Below, piece after piece: positions 4,263-9,122 of a stretch of 17,455 nucleotides of DNA. Within the stretch, counting starts at the first letter, position 1, and the number at the start of each line of letters is the position of its first letter. Under the pieces are notes generated by a model. The model was not told the DNA's origin and did no database searches. It saw only the letters and a program-made list of their open reading frames with translations. Source of the DNA: Colwellia polaris (GTDB taxonomy: Archaea > Nanohalarchaeota > Nanosalinia > Nanosalinales > Nanosalinaceae); assembly GCA_047617785.1 (NCBI GenBank), contig JBLGBK010000013.1, positions 1 through 17,455 on the forward strand, given 5' to 3'. The position numbers and the translations under genes are program-made.

Positions 4263-4898
4263 ATGGTTCAAATGATGAGTAAATTGAGACAGTTTCTCAG
4301 CGACCTGTTCAAGGATTCTGAGCAGGATGATATAAGCATAGGTATCTATGGTCCTCCAAACGCCGGTAAATCAACTCTAGCCAACAAGATCTCAATGGAT
4401 CTGACAGGCGAAGAAATGAGCAACATTTCAGAAGTGCCGCACGAAACAAGGGCTGTAGAGAAAAAAGAGAGAGCAACGCTGGAAGCAAACGGAAGAGAAA
4501 TCCAGATGAATCTGTTAGATATGCCAGGAATTTCTACAAACGTCGACTTCAAAGACTTCACAGAACACGGTCTAGAAGAAGAAGACGCGAAGGGACGAGC
4601 AAAAGAAGCAACAAAAGGAATTGTAGAAGCAATCAAATACTTAGACGATGTAGACGCATGTCTAGTTATCTTCGACTCCACAGAAGACCCTTACACACAA
4701 GTAAACGTAACAATAATCGGAAACCTAGAAGCCAAAGATATCCCAATCCTTGTACTGGCTAACAAGACTGATCTAGAGGATGCAGAACCAGATCGTGTCC
4801 GAGATGCCTTCCCTCAGCATCCGGTACTTGAAATTTCCGCGAAAGAGGGAGAAAACATCGACAAACTTTATGAGGAAATAGTTGAAAGGTTAACTTAA
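4263..4898 (+). CDS. arvA: Archaeal Era-like small GTPase ArvA/OapA
   Basis: G1 IGIYGPPNAGKST, G2 PHETR, G3 DMPG, G4 ANKTD, G5 ISAKEG, family signature RAKEATKGIVEAIKYL..DPYTQVN, and an N-terminal amphipathic helix. Start at 4263 is preceded by GGTG; 4272 and 4275 are alternatives. Confidence 0.9.
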   Translation: MVQMMSKLRQFLSDLFKDSEQDDISIGIYGPPNAGKSTLANKISMDLTGEEMSNISEVPHETRAVEKKERATLEANGREIQMNLLDMPGISTNVDFKDFTEHGLEEEDAKGRAKEATKGIVEAIKYLDDVDACLVIFDSTEDPYTQVNVTIIGNLEAKDIPILVLANKTDLEDAEPDRVRDAFPQHPVLEISAKEGENIDKLYEEIVERLT

Positions 4899-5287
4899 TG
4901 ACGGATGAAGGAGTTACCATCGAATTTCTCTCGAAAGAGAAGCTTAGCGAGAAAGAATTTGACGACAAGCTAGACCTAGTACTGGAAAAAGTCAAAGACA
5001 ACTCTGTGCTCGTATTAGAAGAAGGATGGACTCCAGATGAAAAACGAGAACTAATCAAATCCTCCATGGAAAACATTGACGATGACTTCCCTGGAATTGA
5101 ATTTCTAGGTCTTACCTCCAATAATTCACGCCTTGAACGCGCCCGTAACATTTTCTACGAAAAATTCCTTAACGAGAAATACCGTCGCGGATTAACAATA
5201 GTCGGTAACGCAAGAGTGATGGAGAAAATCAAGGAAGAAAAGGATACTGTCTCATTCCTTGCACGAATGGATGAGCAAAGTAATTAA
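4898..5287 (+). CDS. arvB: DUF2073 family protein ArvB/OapB
   Basis: Motifs VLVLEEGWTPDEKRELI..M..I.DDFPGIE and GLTIVGNA. Translationally coupled to arvA by a TAATG overlap at 4896-4900. Confidence 0.85.
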   Translation: MTDEGVTIEFLSKEKLSEKEFDDKLDLVLEKVKDNSVLVLEEGWTPDEKRELIKSSMENIDDDFPGIEFLGLTSNNSRLERARNIFYEKFLNEKYRRGLTIVGNARVMEKIKEEKDTVSFLARMDEQSN

Positions 5288-5299
5288 GGTGAAAAATCA

Positions 5300-5683
5300 G
5301 TGCCTCACAGATGCATGAACTGCGGTAAGACATATGATGATGACTCTGAAGAACTTCTAAACGGCTGTGAATGTGGTTCATCACTTTTCATGTACGAAAA
5401 CGAGATCGAACGCGATCAAGAAGAACTTCAGGAAGAGAAGGAAGAAGTCGAAGAAGATATCCGTGAAATGGTTGGAAGCGGTGAAAAAGAACGAGGTAAC
5501 ATCAAAATAGAATTTGATCTTGACTCTATCAAGGTCCGTGAAGAAGGCGTCTATGATATCAACGTCTCACGTCTGCTCGAAGAACTACCGCTCGTAATCG
5601 AGAAAAGCGAAGGAGTATACAGAATCCACTTGCCTTCGGCCTTCAAGAAGGAATCTCGCCAAGTTGATATTGGTGAATTATAG
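5300..5683 (+). CDS. arvC: DUF2072 Zn-ribbon protein ArvC/OapC
   Basis: MPHRCMNCG..LLNGCECGS.LFMY N-terminal Zn ribbon, C-terminal SIKVREEGVYDIN..EGVYRI, GTG start with a GGTGA RBS at 5288-5292. Confidence 0.87.
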   Translation: MPHRCMNCGKTYDDDSEELLNGCECGSSLFMYENEIERDQEELQEEKEEVEEDIREMVGSGEKERGNIKIEFDLDSIKVREEGVYDINVSRLLEELPLVIEKSEGVYRIHLPSAFKKESRQVDIGEL

Positions 5684-7791: not shown

Positions 7792-8097
7792 ATGGAGAAA
7801 GACATTGACTTCGAAAGAGTAGAATACTCAACCAACAGAAAACTGGAGAACGACGAAGGAGAGAAAACCGGCAAAGTTCAGATGTTCTCCTACGATACAG
7901 AATTATACCACTACGACATCGAATGTCCATACTGCGGCAACCACTGGGAAGGGGAACAAGAACTAGGTTCTCGACCATGGTGGATTGAATGCCCGGAATG
8001 CACAAGAAGCGTCAATGTCAACCGCATCAAAGACGCAATGGATCGCAAAGTCAAAGAACGCGGACCAGACACGCCTGACGACATGCCAGAAGCATAA
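7792..8097 (+). CDS. Zn-ribbon (C4) hypothetical protein
   Basis: CPYC and CPEC knuckles, host-like codon use, and an oligo-T tract at 8104-8118. Confidence 0.85.
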   Translation: MEKDIDFERVEYSTNRKLENDEGEKTGKVQMFSYDTELYHYDIECPYCGNHWEGEQELGSRPWWIECPECTRSVNVNRIKDAMDRKVKERGPDTPDDMPEA

Positions 8098-8118
8098 AGC
8101 CAGTTTTTTATTCTTTTT

Positions 8119-8515
8119 ATGAATTCGTAAACTGTTATAGTATCAGAGATGCTTAAAAGAGATTTTAACTTGTCTGTACCTTTTGGAAACATGCTAGATA
8201 TGACTCTCATCGATGAGAGGTTGATGAGCTTTGAAAGAGTCTCTTGTAAGACAAAAATTCTTTGAAATGGTGTCATAGTAGTTAAGACCGTTAGTACTAG
8301 ATCTAAATCTTTAGAAACCTCTGAAACTAGTTATAAGATTTAAATCGACAAATATGTGGCATATTGTCCTCAGAATGAGAAACTTTGTGAAGTGCCTAGT
8401 GAAGGGAGATTTCAGGAACGAGATGTTTCTAAGAGCGACTTAAACAGACAATAATCAAGAGAAAGGTATTACCTGGACGGAAGACCACAGTTTGTGTCAG
8501 TGGATTCTAATATAA
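8119..8515 (+). pseudogene. Decayed PD-(D/E)xK endonuclease, PDDEXK_5 / group I intron-associated (I-Ssp6803I-like) family
   Basis: Read through stops: S*TVIVSEMLKRDFNLSVPFG, ARYD (shifted frame near 8193), FERVSCKTKIL*NGVIVVKT, YKI*IDKYVAYCPQNEKLCEVP, then in a shifted frame EMFLRAT*TDNNQEKGITWTEDHSL. The family motifs occur in order. Stops at 8128, 8263, 8341 and 8441, plus frameshifts. Confidence 0.85.
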
Positions 8516-8518
8516 ATG
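8509..8518 (+). promoter_or_regulatory. TATA box of tRNA-Thr
   Basis: TATAAAT at 8511-8517, ending about 23 bp before the tRNA 5' end, overlapping the pseudogene stop codon. Confidence 0.6.
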
Positions 8519-8540
8519 TTACCTACTACACACTTTCTGT

Positions 8541-8630
8541 GCCTTCGTGGCTCAGTCTGGCTAGAGCGACCCCCTTGTAACATCACTGCAAGACAGGGGT
8601 AGGCCGAGGGTTCAAATCCCTCCGAGGGCT
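8541..8630 (+). tRNA. tRNA-Thr (anticodon TGT) with 15-nt intron at canonical 37/38 position
   Basis: Acceptor GCCTTCG/CGAGGGC, D-stem GCTC/GAGC, anticodon stem ACCCC/GGGGT, anticodon 8576-8578, T-arm GAGGG-TTCAAAT-CCCTC, discriminator T. Confidence 0.95.
8580..8594 (+). other. tRNA intron with bulge-helix-bulge splice motif
   Basis: Intron ACATCACTGCAAGAC. Central helix CTTG (8574-8577) / CAAG (8589-8592), bulges TA^A and AC^A, outer helix CA/TG closing a TCAC loop. Confidence 0.9.
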
Positions 8631-8665
8631 CTTCTCATTCTGTGAATCAATTCGGTCAAAATTAA

Positions 8666-8975
8666 AGCTGGGCTTTCACTGACGTGGATGTTGTTTTAGC
8701 TGAGAATACAAGAGAGAATATACTGGAAGATCTACATTATGATTATGACGGATTGCTTAAGGCGCCAGAACTTCCCCCGGAGAATCAATACATTTCACAC
8801 TGCCTAATGAATATGACTTAATTAAATCTCTGAAGGAAAATTTGAGTCGAAACAGGATGCGGAAGATCACAGTTTACAAGCTCACATTATCTTCAGAGCC
8901 GGAAGAAAGGAATATGGAGGTACTTACAACGTTAAACCTTCGCGTGAAGGAGAACTTTCTAATGAGTTTATTTGA
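8666..8975 (+). pseudogene. 5'-truncated, doubly frameshifted gene remnant of unknown family
   Basis: Adding one C to the C5 run (8774-8778) and one A to the A4 run (8837-8840) gives a continuous frame: ..ENILEDLHYDYDGLLKAPELPPGESIHFTLPNEYDLIKSLKEKFESKQDAEDHSLQAHIIFRAGRKEYGGTYNVKPSREGELSNEFI*. Confidence 0.45.
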
Positions 8976-9122
8976 AATGACTCATCAAGGAAAAAAATCG
9001 TTCTTTCTCTCTACAATCGTGGATAACTCGTAACTTCTGAGACTAAGCTTCTATAACTTACATGAACTTTAGACTCTCGAGCTGCCTAAAGTGTGAAAAG
9101 ACTGAGCTGAGAATAACATTGT

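Follow-up and report, generated by a model that had tools for sequence, protein, structure and literature searches.

The window, a 17,455-nt stretch from the 787-kb genome of a salt-loving nanohaloarchaeon, contains a tRNA-Thr(UGU) gene with a small intron and, between this tRNA and a conserved Zn-ribbon protein gene, the remains of a gene of the PDDEXK_5 family. The features are listed here with coordinates, strand and the evidence for each:

7792..8097, + strand, Zn-ribbon protein gene, a conserved neighbour on the upstream side by which the orthologous locus is recognised (present in 58 of the phylum's 70 genomes)
8098..8118, + strand, T-rich spacer of 21 nt from the Zn-ribbon stop to the pseudogene ATG (direct reading)
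8119..8515, + strand, decayed PDDEXK_5 (I-Ssp6803I-family) homing-endonuclease gene (PF11645 match; alignment to the intact gene of genome G022)
8506..8521, + strand, end of the nuclease gene running into the putative promoter of the tRNA (block identical in G022:C25)
8541..8579, + strand, 5' exon of tRNA-Thr(UGU) (Rfam; ARAGORN with introns allowed)
8580..8594, + strand, 15-nt intron at canonical position 37/38 (ARAGORN with introns allowed)
8595..8630, + strand, 3' exon of tRNA-Thr(UGU) (Rfam; ARAGORN with introns allowed)

The decayed gene and the intron-bearing tRNA

The profile PF11645 (PDDEXK_5) matched the + frame starting at 8119 with 54 bits (E 2.3e-14; profile positions 12-108 of 138) against a curated cut-off of 26.1 bits, and a search of the whole 787-kb genome returned the same place (8131-8412) as its sole match. 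With a locally built HMM the window copy scored 49.1 bits, and NCBIfam gave no match to the three + frames of the 8119-8515 region. Of the four intact nanohaloarchaeal genes, two share 44% and 38% identity with the copy; in the alignment to the intact G022 gene, residues 16-109 run in one frame with 44% identity, about 12 N-terminal codons are absent, and the in-frame stops are TAA 8128 (codon 4), TGA 8263, TAA 8341 and TAA 8441. A +1 shift follows residue 109, so that residues 110-135 continue in the next frame (the one containing TAA 8441), and the stop homologous to that of G022 (8508-8510) lies in the third frame; the pseudogene therefore carries at least two frameshifts. Three columns that do not vary among the four intact relatives, E11, D36 and Q49, are deleted, T and S, respectively, in the window copy. 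A profile built from the four intact genes had 2OST as its sole match of solved structure (E 4.3e-12, residues 3-123), and the acidic, Gln and Lys columns conserved in PDDEXK_5 are presumably the active-site residues of the 2OST enzyme. Judged by its sequence, the window copy is a dead family member with neither an open frame nor intact conserved columns, and 8119-8515 is what is left of a PD-(D/E)XK homing-endonuclease gene, free-standing and belonging to the I-Ssp6803I family. The same broken sequence was present in contigs of all four sequencing runs examined (1-7 differences).

Upstream, the Zn-ribbon protein gave no more than weak zinc-ribbon matches in Pfam. A remnant of a tRNA 5' exon was sought between its gene and the pseudogene and none was found, the 21-nt spacer alone lying there; position 8104 in this spacer is a 1-nt length variant in two sequencing runs. 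One low-similarity contig had 790 letters separating the Zn-ribbon gene and the tRNA, versus 511. Downstream, the free-standing gene ends 25 nt 5' of the intron-bearing tRNA, and the layout is equal, with an intact gene, in G022. A TATA-like ATATAAAT lies at 8510-8517, 24-31 nt 5' of the tRNA, with TAA 8508 or 8513 within or touching it, and the 16-nt block 8506-8521 recurs unchanged where the intact nuclease gene of G022:C25 ends. To judge from its position, ATATAAAT would be the tRNA promoter, i.e., the end of the nuclease gene would supply the TATA box of the tRNA. Similar TTTATAAAAAT blocks occur 3' of the nuclease gene and 5' of tRNA-Asn in L213 and L233.

The tRNA matched Rfam with 55.5 bits across 8541-8630 (17-nt insert); it was missed by a default ARAGORN run and found by a run allowing introns. 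The predicted fold of the intron comprises a 4-bp CUUG/CAAG helix and a 3-nt 3' bulge, and its 5' side is paired, therefore the structure would be a relaxed bulge-helix-bulge (BHB) and not the textbook form. The genome encodes a splicing endonuclease (PF01974, 89 bits). The 3' ends (CAAG + 2 nt) are alike across all Thr introns, a likeness that was ruled out as a sign of common descent because these ends are alike through their pairing with the anticodon loop.

The preliminary description of this DNA, made from the letters alone, had reported a near-full-length PDDEXK_5 gene with four stops and several frameshifts, its own stop overlapping the TATA box of a tRNA that bears a 15-nt BHB intron in the anticodon loop. 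It was a fair account of the gene, whose family the profile search proposed there has now borne out, and of the overlap with the TATA-like block; intron and position likewise stand, and the predicted fold departs from a textbook BHB in lacking the 5' bulge.

The same locus in other Nanohaloarchaeota

Within the phylum the nuclease gene occurs in five of the 70 genomes, each of a different genus, a patchiness typical of a selfish gene, and in all five it lies at an intron-bearing tRNA. In G002, G017, G029, G022 and G034 the Zn-ribbon gene is followed immediately by tRNA-Thr(UGU) or by the nuclease gene, and because they have this neighbour in common we regard the tRNA-Thr(UGU) loci as orthologous. 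In G017, an intact gene resides within a BHB intron of 426 nt that occupies 37/38 in the orthologous tRNA-Thr, the very site of the window's 15-nt intron, and its ORF of 135 aa takes up 405 of the 426 nt. In the minimum-energy fold predicted for this pre-tRNA (z = -5.3), the anticodon stem has 5 bp, 3-nt bulges flank a helix of 4 bp on either side, and a further helix closes the structure. Since no other tRNA-Thr(UGU) gene turned up in G017, the intron must be spliced. With its 426-nt insert, this tRNA escaped the Rfam search at gathering score; ARAGORN with introns allowed, together with exon identity to G029, settled its identity. The nuclease ORF is likewise inside the intron in contig L155, which is 99% identical to G017. 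The intron-resident G017 gene and its free-standing counterpart in G022, which occupies the same locus, share 63% identity. G029, a congener of G017 with identical exons, has a 21-nt intron, the start CGTTC being common to both. In Nanohaloarchaeota, the lineage of the window gene thus resides at the tRNA-Thr(UGU) locus and has two forms, one between the Zn-ribbon gene and the tRNA (dead in the window, intact in G022) and one inside the 426-nt intron (G017).

G002, which belongs to the genus of the window, has neither nuclease gene nor intron at the orthologous tRNA-Thr locus; its Zn-ribbon protein is 95% identical to that of the window, the tRNA follows 57 nt after the gene, and the anticodon arm is identical. 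Intron-less tRNA-Thr(UGU) alleles are also present in G069, G067, G071 and G012. Thr introns of 14-21 nt are confined to the three genera with a Thr-type nuclease, the other genera having introns of 69-143 nt or none; G001, G061, G062 and G063 yielded no tRNA-Thr(UGU) and, being 68-82% complete, are uninformative here. A second nuclease lineage lies just 5' of an intron-bearing tRNA-Asn(GUU) in G007, G016, L213 and L233, the last two being metagenome contigs with nanohaloarchaeal-type tRNA-Asn exons. The tRNA-Thr exons group by host genus: nuclease-bearing and nuclease-less members of one genus have identical exons (G017 and G029; G022:C25 and C28), and the window genome, G000, is nearest to G002. 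The tRNA copy next to the nuclease gene is thus not foreign to its host lineage. Two G022 contigs were considered as alleles and rejected, being 76.5% alike in the Zn-ribbon region, and they therefore provide no evidence of polymorphism within a population. A single-gene (Top6A-like) tree did not recover the genera and was too poorly resolved to order events; we therefore give no direction of change.

tRNA genes and introns across the family

I-Ssp6803I (PF11645; PDB 2OST) is the homing endonuclease of a group I intron in the tRNA-fMet gene of Synechocystis; a 2012 review placed its close homologues mainly in cyanobacteria (PMC3384342), and five haloarchaeal sequences were noted in the family by Steczkiewicz (2012). 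Our surveys show that what is known from a cyanobacterial group I intron is a large family, spread through Halobacteria, Actinomycetes and others, whose genes almost always stand beside tRNA genes: in four surveys, a tRNA gene lay within 600 nt of the family gene at 20 of 22, 30 of 30, 40 of 40 and 77 of 80 loci, and nucleases with the same tRNA partner group together on the nuclease tree (6 changes of tRNA label versus 19.7 in shuffles). The gene is present in 138 of 301 sampled Halobacteria and absent from the other 163. Outside the Nanohaloarchaeota most loci adjoin intron-less tRNAs, namely Asp and Pro in Halobacteria and Thr in Actinomycetes. The gene stands beside tRNA-Thr in Actinomycetes, Patescibacteria and archaea, and the anticodon stems of these nuclease-linked tRNA-Thr genes differ between bacteria and archaea, therefore no target beyond the loop is shared. 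A literature search returned no published tRNA-linked PDDEXK_5 gene, no mini-intron beside such a nuclease gene and no report of site-specific cleavage by any archaeal PDDEXK_5 member.

An intron is frequent in the phylum also where the nuclease is absent: it occurs in 12 of 17 tRNA-Thr(UGU) loci of nuclease-less Nanohaloarchaeota, including another family of the phylum, and in 13 of 19 of their tRNA-Asn(GUU) loci, and with base rates this high, the presence of an intron at each of the nuclease loci does not exceed what chance would give (roughly 0.1-0.2). The intron may be much older than the nuclease gene. Two ARAGORN calls wrapped round locus ends (L011, L013) were artefacts and were dropped from all counts, and the kinship of genomes is ignored in every count of introns and nucleases. 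In Halobacteria, with kinship so ignored, tRNA-Asn has an intron at 23 of the 35 listed loci beside a nuclease gene versus 34 of 115 elsewhere (odds ratio about 4.6). Intact genes adjoin an intron-less tRNA-Asn in 12 of the 35 listed cases, and the intron state flips at least eight times among closely related intact haloarchaeal nucleases, thus the intron is not needed for coexistence in the haloarchaeal clade. All of the 22 tRNA-Met and 2 tRNA-Leu genes situated 12-84 nt 3' of haloarchaeal nuclease genes are intron-less. With the window as positive control, no nuclease remnant was found within 1.5 kb of any of 31 intron-bearing, nuclease-less haloarchaeal tRNA-Asn genes, nor near 29 intron-less haloarchaeal tRNA-Asn loci. 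An intron is present in eight archaeal tRNAs located 25-70 nt 3' of a nuclease gene on the same strand (window, G022, G007, G016, L213, L233, L218 and L272).

The kinship to I-Ssp6803I and the tie of the family to tRNA genes, both proposed earlier, are upheld by PF11645, by the match to 2OST and by the family-wide linkage. As to a correlation of an adjacent nuclease with the intron, the two occur together in all five genomes of the phylum, not beyond chance given the base rates, and in the haloarchaeal tRNA-Asn counts the intron is commoner beside the nuclease, with 12 exceptions. Of the observations that the preliminary description had named as speaking against its mechanism, an intron common without the nuclease and intact homologues beside intron-less tRNAs were both encountered to some extent.

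Proposed homing at the anticodon loop and its alternatives

The locus is best read as a dead, tRNA-targeting homing endonuclease gene beside an intron that probably interrupts its target site. By analogy with I-Ssp6803I in tRNA-fMet genes, the enzyme would have cut uninterrupted tRNA-Thr(UGU) DNA in or near the anticodon loop, and repair from a nuclease-bearing copy would have brought the gene, along with the intron close to it, into the allele that had been cut. An intron at 37/38, of whatever kind, would split the target site and make its carriers immune; once no cuttable alleles were left, the nuclease gene would decay, and the intron would persist since the host splicing endonuclease removes it from the RNA. 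This homing mechanism, as put forward in the preliminary description, gains from the gene within the G017 intron and from the lack of both gene and intron in G002, and loses from the commonness of the intron without the nuclease and from the many relatives beside intron-less tRNAs. That a tRNA-Thr-cutting nuclease spread with a linked shielding intron and then decayed is, taken as a whole, a tentative explanation in which our confidence falls a little short of even.

A serious alternative, which we consider quite possible if well below even, is that the intron is a bystander. A tRNA-linked homing nuclease might have cut elsewhere in or beside the tRNA gene, or its spacer target might have been disrupted by its own insertion, with base changes, or the insertion as such, protecting the carriers; the Thr intron would be old and independently variable in the phylum, and in G017 the gene would have moved secondarily into an intron that was conveniently at hand. 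The base rates of 12/17 and 13/19 would then be expected, as would the intron-less tRNAs beside most family members and the frequent flips of intron state in Halobacteria. However, the normal target of a homing gene that resides in an intron is the insertion site without the intron, and the G017 gene is a close relative of the free-standing one in G022 at the same locus; the eight introns in closely adjacent archaeal tRNAs and the haloarchaeal odds ratio favour a link, and the window genome and G002 differ in nuclease gene and intron together. If the link to the intron fails, an ordinary decayed selfish gene remains.

It is improbable that the gene was not selfish, i.e., that it encoded a dispensable host nuclease acting at tRNA loci in processing, regulation or repair and lost in a reduced genome. 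Its retention by 138 of the 301 sampled Halobacteria would fit such a role, as would its fixed place and strand beside particular tRNAs in 70 of 70 loci examined and the match of nuclease clades with tRNA partners, which vertical descent could also yield; against this, the gene is missing from 163 of those Halobacteria and from all but five of the 70 genomes of the phylum, stop-containing copies exist, the G017 gene sits inside an intron, the sole characterised family member is a homing endonuclease, and the adjacency to tRNA-Thr in Actinomycetes, Patescibacteria and archaea suggests transfer. It is very improbable that the gene was left behind by a virus or plasmid that had integrated with the tRNA as attachment site and happened to bring the nuclease gene along: tRNA genes are common integration sites (PMC4090602), the DNA 3' of the tRNA is not conserved between the window genome and G002 and has a gene-free stretch of 490 nt (8631-9122 gave no Pfam match and no likeness to 36 related loci), and partial tRNA 3'-end copies of at least 17 nt lie between tRNA and nuclease gene in 10 of 27 haloarchaeal tRNA-Asp loci, but the gene is 5' of the tRNA, tight between two core genes and equally tight in G022, with no integrase or mobile gene nearby and no flanking repeat of the tRNA end within the window.

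Returning to homing at the anticodon loop, I-Ssp6803I is the closest known system, belonging to the same protein family by profile, with about 135-150 aa and a tie to the tRNA anticodon-loop region, and the G017 gene also lies within an anticodon-loop intron. It differs in that the host here is an archaeon, that the G017 intron is a protein-spliced BHB intron of 426 nt, nearly all ORF and with no space for a ribozyme, and that the window gene is outside the intron and dead. Archaeal rRNA BHB introns encode LAGLIDADG homing endonucleases (I-DmoI, I-PorI). The occurrence of homing-endonuclease genes in archaeal BHB introns (PMC6125680) is paralleled by G017, a protein-spliced archaeal intron with such an ORF, whereas the hosts there are rRNAs and the enzymes LAGLIDADG, and here a tRNA and PD-(D/E)XK. 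In the text of a 2014 review of tRNA introns (PMC4090602), 'homing', 'ORF' and 'open reading frame' never occur.

Collaborative homing has been described together with a proposed route to mobile introns (PMC3984707, section 12; also PMC6083498 and PMC2790892). As there, a free-standing nuclease gene stands here beside a gene with an ORF-less intron at the presumed cut site, and an intron-resident form is present in a relative (G017); in the phage cases the introns are of group I, their hosts are protein-coding genes and cleavage at the insertion site is proven, whereas here a cellular archaeal tRNA has a BHB intron and cleavage is presumed by analogy. An archaeal collaborative homing, with a PD-(D/E)XK enzyme and a protein-spliced BHB intron spreading together at tRNA anticodon loops in Nanohaloarchaeota and perhaps Halobacteria, is conceivable but appears rather less likely than not; under it, the same gene may enter the shielding intron and give rise to a fully mobile tRNA intron. 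The orthologous tRNA-Thr locus would in that case represent all stages of a cycle: empty (G002), intron with live gene (G022), gene inside the intron (G017), intron with dead gene (the window) and intron alone (G029, G034). In a proposal by Randau and Soll, tRNA introns guard the genes that contain them against integrating elements (PMC4090602), and in both proposals the intron shields a conserved tRNA sequence from a site-specific DNA enzyme; the attackers there are viral integrases, whereas here the putative homing endonuclease would also spread the shield. As a hypothesis, homing would explain the patchy gain of tRNA introns in archaea, which the preliminary description had also suggested, and if true it would be a mechanism at the DNA level. 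The intact gene in a large intron at the same tRNA site hints at how archaeal tRNA introns might move. With a homing endonuclease in or beside protein-spliced tRNA introns, intron gain and movement become testable, and natural allele pairs differing by the intron alone exist for the intact G017 and G022 enzymes.

A decayed nuclease gene beside an intron-bearing tRNA

The window comprises one entire contig of 17,455 bases from a 787-kb genome (96.5% complete), and no long ORF was found in the interval that separates a small Zn-ribbon gene from a tRNA gene, which nevertheless gave a PDDEXK_5 match:

7792-8097, small Zn-ribbon gene, upstream neighbour of the dead nuclease gene
from 8119, + strand, dead PDDEXK_5 gene (Pfam PF11645, 54 bits, E 2.3e-14, cut-off 26.1)
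8541-8630, tRNA-Thr(UGU) gene (Rfam, 55.5 bits)

The PF11645 match was the only one in a profile search of the whole 787 kb, and NCBIfam gave no match for the three + frames. The pseudogene was aligned to the intact gene of G022, another member of the phylum: one frame covers residues 16-109 of the reference with 44% identity and in-frame TGA (8263) and TAA (8341) codons, a frameshift follows residue 109, the next frame matches residues 110-135 and contains a TAA at 8441, and the third frame holds the counterpart of the G022 stop (8508). The N-terminus lacks about 12 codons, and codon 4 is a TAA (8128). Of three residues invariant in four intact relatives, E11 is deleted, D36 is replaced by T and Q49 by S. 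Judged from its sequence, the gene is dead, and the preliminary description of a decayed, near-full-length PDDEXK_5-type gene with four stops and shifted frames was borne out. The same broken gene occurs, with 1-7 differences, in contigs of four public runs; the 18 runs listed include no RNA run. As had also been described, the gene abuts the putative tRNA promoter: it ends in ATATAAAT (8510-8517), 24 nt upstream of the tRNA, and G022 and the window share, letter for letter, the block linking this end to the promoter, TCTAATATAAATGTTA.

An intron of 15 nt interrupts the tRNA at the canonical position in the anticodon loop, and the genome encodes a tRNA-splicing endonuclease. The intron had been called a bulge-helix-bulge (BHB) intron; the predicted fold recovered the helix (CUUG/CAAG) and, on the 3' side, a bulge of 3 nt, but no 5' bulge. 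Introns were found in 6 of the 32 tRNA genes detected in this genome, among them one (G000:C1:15615-15741; L088 2803-2929) labelled tRNA-Thr(agt) with a 53-nt intron by ARAGORN, which we read by eye as tRNA-Asn(GUU) with an intron of ~53 nt at position 37/38.

The surrounding genes (Cdc48, NUDIX, GTPase, OapB/OapC, HAD hydrolases) form a housekeeping neighbourhood and no mobile island. OapB and OapC (origin-associated protein) lie side by side at 4898-5683, and a replication origin may therefore be near. The ~490 nt 3' of the tRNA (8631-9122) contain no ORF >63 aa, gave no Pfam match in any of the six frames and resemble none of 36 related loci, a gene-free stretch unusual in so compact a genome; in G002, of the same genus, a different gene follows the tRNA.

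The tRNA-Thr(UGU) locus across the phylum

PF11645 matches were found in 5 of 70 phylum genomes, representing five different genera, and in all five the tRNA at the nuclease gene bears an intron. The loci of the window, G022 and G017 share the Zn-ribbon gene as their upstream neighbour and are therefore orthologous.

Nuclease gene and intron at tRNA loci of the phylum (genome; nuclease gene; tRNA; intron)
G002; none; tRNA-Thr; none (Zn-ribbon protein 95% identical and anticodon arm identical to the window's)
G029, same genus as G017; none; tRNA-Thr; 21 nt (exons as in G017, intron start CGTTC as in G017)
G034; none; tRNA-Thr; 14 nt
second contig of the G022 bin; none; tRNA-Thr; 15 nt
G022; intact and live, upstream; tRNA-Thr(UGU); 14 nt
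G017; intact, 135 aa, within the intron; tRNA-Thr(UGU); 426 nt at 37/38
window genome; dead, upstream; tRNA-Thr(UGU); 15 nt
G007; intact, upstream; tRNA-Asn(GUU); 109 nt
G016; intact, upstream; tRNA-Asn(GUU); 31 nt

The window gene, now dead, belongs to the I-Ssp6803I family (2OST being the only solved relative) and to a lineage tied to the tRNA-Thr(UGU) locus; in G017 the same lineage resides inside a BHB intron of this tRNA. In its minimum-energy fold (z = -5.3), the 501-nt G017 precursor has the anticodon stem, a closing helix and, between them, a 4-bp helix with a 3-nt bulge at each end; no second tRNA-Thr(UGU) gene was found in that genome, and another public contig (L155) holds a copy 99% identical to this arrangement. 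A single-gene tree gave no order of events at the locus. The G022 bin is probably a mix of two organisms: it holds two versions of the locus (L143/L144; G022:C25/G022:C28) that share the same tRNA exons and match at only 76.5% across the Zn-ribbon region. One 956-nt contig of run X1, from a related organism (compared with window 8036-8548), has 790 letters from the Zn-ribbon gene end to the tRNA versus 511 in the window.

To our knowledge, the homing genes known from archaeal BHB introns are all in rRNA genes. That such introns hold homing genes is stated in PMC6125680, and reviews place the nuclease family in cyanobacteria plus a few haloarchaeal sequences (PMC3384342; Steczkiewicz 2012). A 2014 review of tRNA introns (PMC4090602) leaves homing and ORFs unmentioned and describes the way in which introns transpose as unknown. 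A search of the main texts of freely accessible papers returned no archaeal tRNA BHB intron with a PD-(D/E)XK gene inside it or next to it.

tRNA linkage of the wider family

The I-Ssp6803I family at large is tRNA-linked: a tRNA gene lies within ~400 nt at 20 of 22 family loci in a species-genome scan, and within 600 nt at 77 of 80 in a metagenome scan (80 of the 205 relatives found). The metagenome tRNA-linked loci include 64 with an intron-less tRNA-Thr(UGU) in high-GC DNA, two contigs with nanohaloarchaeal-type tRNA-Asn exons and the nuclease gene 24 and 56 nt upstream of an intron-bearing tRNA-Asn, and one haloarchaeal-type contig with the gene upstream of an intron-bearing tRNA-Lys. PDDEXK_5 genes were present in 138 of 301 Halobacteria sampled, and at all 70 loci examined (L114-L142, L235-L274) the gene adjoins a tRNA gene of the same orientation, a linkage for which no describing paper was found.

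Partner tRNAs of nuclease genes in Halobacteria (tRNA; loci; introns)
tRNA-Asn; 31; 33-37 nt in 18, absent in 13
tRNA-Asp; 27; none
tRNA-Pro; 9; none
tRNA-Leu; 2; none
tRNA-Arg; 1; one, 29 nt

An intron-less tRNA-Met also lies 3' of the nuclease gene in 22 of the 31 Asn loci. Partners are strongly clustered on the nuclease tree (6 changes versus 19.7 in shuffles), which kinship could also produce; the nanohaloarchaeal nuclease genes at tRNA-Thr and at tRNA-Asn form separate lineages. Many haloarchaeal tRNA-Asp loci have tandem tRNA-Asp genes, and ten (L114, L118, L119, L120, L127, L133, L134, L138, L140, L141) have 1-3 partial copies (17-24 nt) of the tRNA-Asp 3' end between tRNA and nuclease gene, a pattern suggestive of attachment-site scars or of repeated rounds of repair.

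The intron and the putative cut site

Intron-resident homing genes generally cut the empty insertion site. I-Ssp6803I is, by the title of its founding paper, specific for the anticodon-loop region of tRNA-fMet genes (reference list of PMC3984707). Because of this specificity and that habit, the enzyme may have cut the uninterrupted anticodon-loop region; the intron would block the site, and gene and intron, <100 bp apart, would be co-transferred during repair, joint travel termed collaborative homing in section 12 of PMC3984707. We tentatively favour this reading, although we rate it as slightly less likely than not. A somewhat less probable but serious alternative is that a tRNA-linked homing gene cut elsewhere and that the intron is a bystander, as suggested by the intron-less tRNA partners of nuclease genes and by the frequency of introns where the nuclease is lacking. 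In the phylum, 12 of the 17 nuclease-less loci with a visible tRNA-Thr(UGU) gene carry an intron at this position (14-143 nt; absent in five; two wrap-round ARAGORN calls excluded), also in another family of the phylum. For tRNA-Asn(GUU), introns are present in 13 of 19 nuclease-less loci, the window genome's among them. With such high base rates, the intron at all phylum nuclease loci is not significant (roughly 0.1-0.2). These nuclease loci involve only two tRNA species. One pattern is conspicuous: short tRNA-Thr introns (14-21 nt) occur only in the three genera with the nuclease at tRNA-Thr; elsewhere they measure 69-143 nt.

The proposed correlation between an adjacent nuclease and a tRNA intron was tested in the larger haloarchaeal sample. 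Among the 150 tRNA-Asn(GUU) matches listed of 200 (192 of 301 genomes), 23 of the 35 with a listed nuclease gene no more than 1.5 kb away had an intron, versus 34 of 115 others (odds ratio ~4.6, kinship uncorrected); however, 12 of these 35 listed carriers are intron-less, and between closely related intact nucleases the intron state changes 8 or more times. None of 31 intron-bearing, nuclease-less haloarchaeal tRNA-Asn loci held a nuclease remnant within 1.5 kb, the window serving as positive control (49 bits). A host function of the nuclease is unlikely and a remnant of an integrated element very improbable, both fitting more poorly than the cut-site readings. Among the 150 listed haloarchaeal tRNA-Asn(GUU) genes, 57 have a 29-37-nt intron at 37/38, whose presence or absence varies from one close relative to the next.
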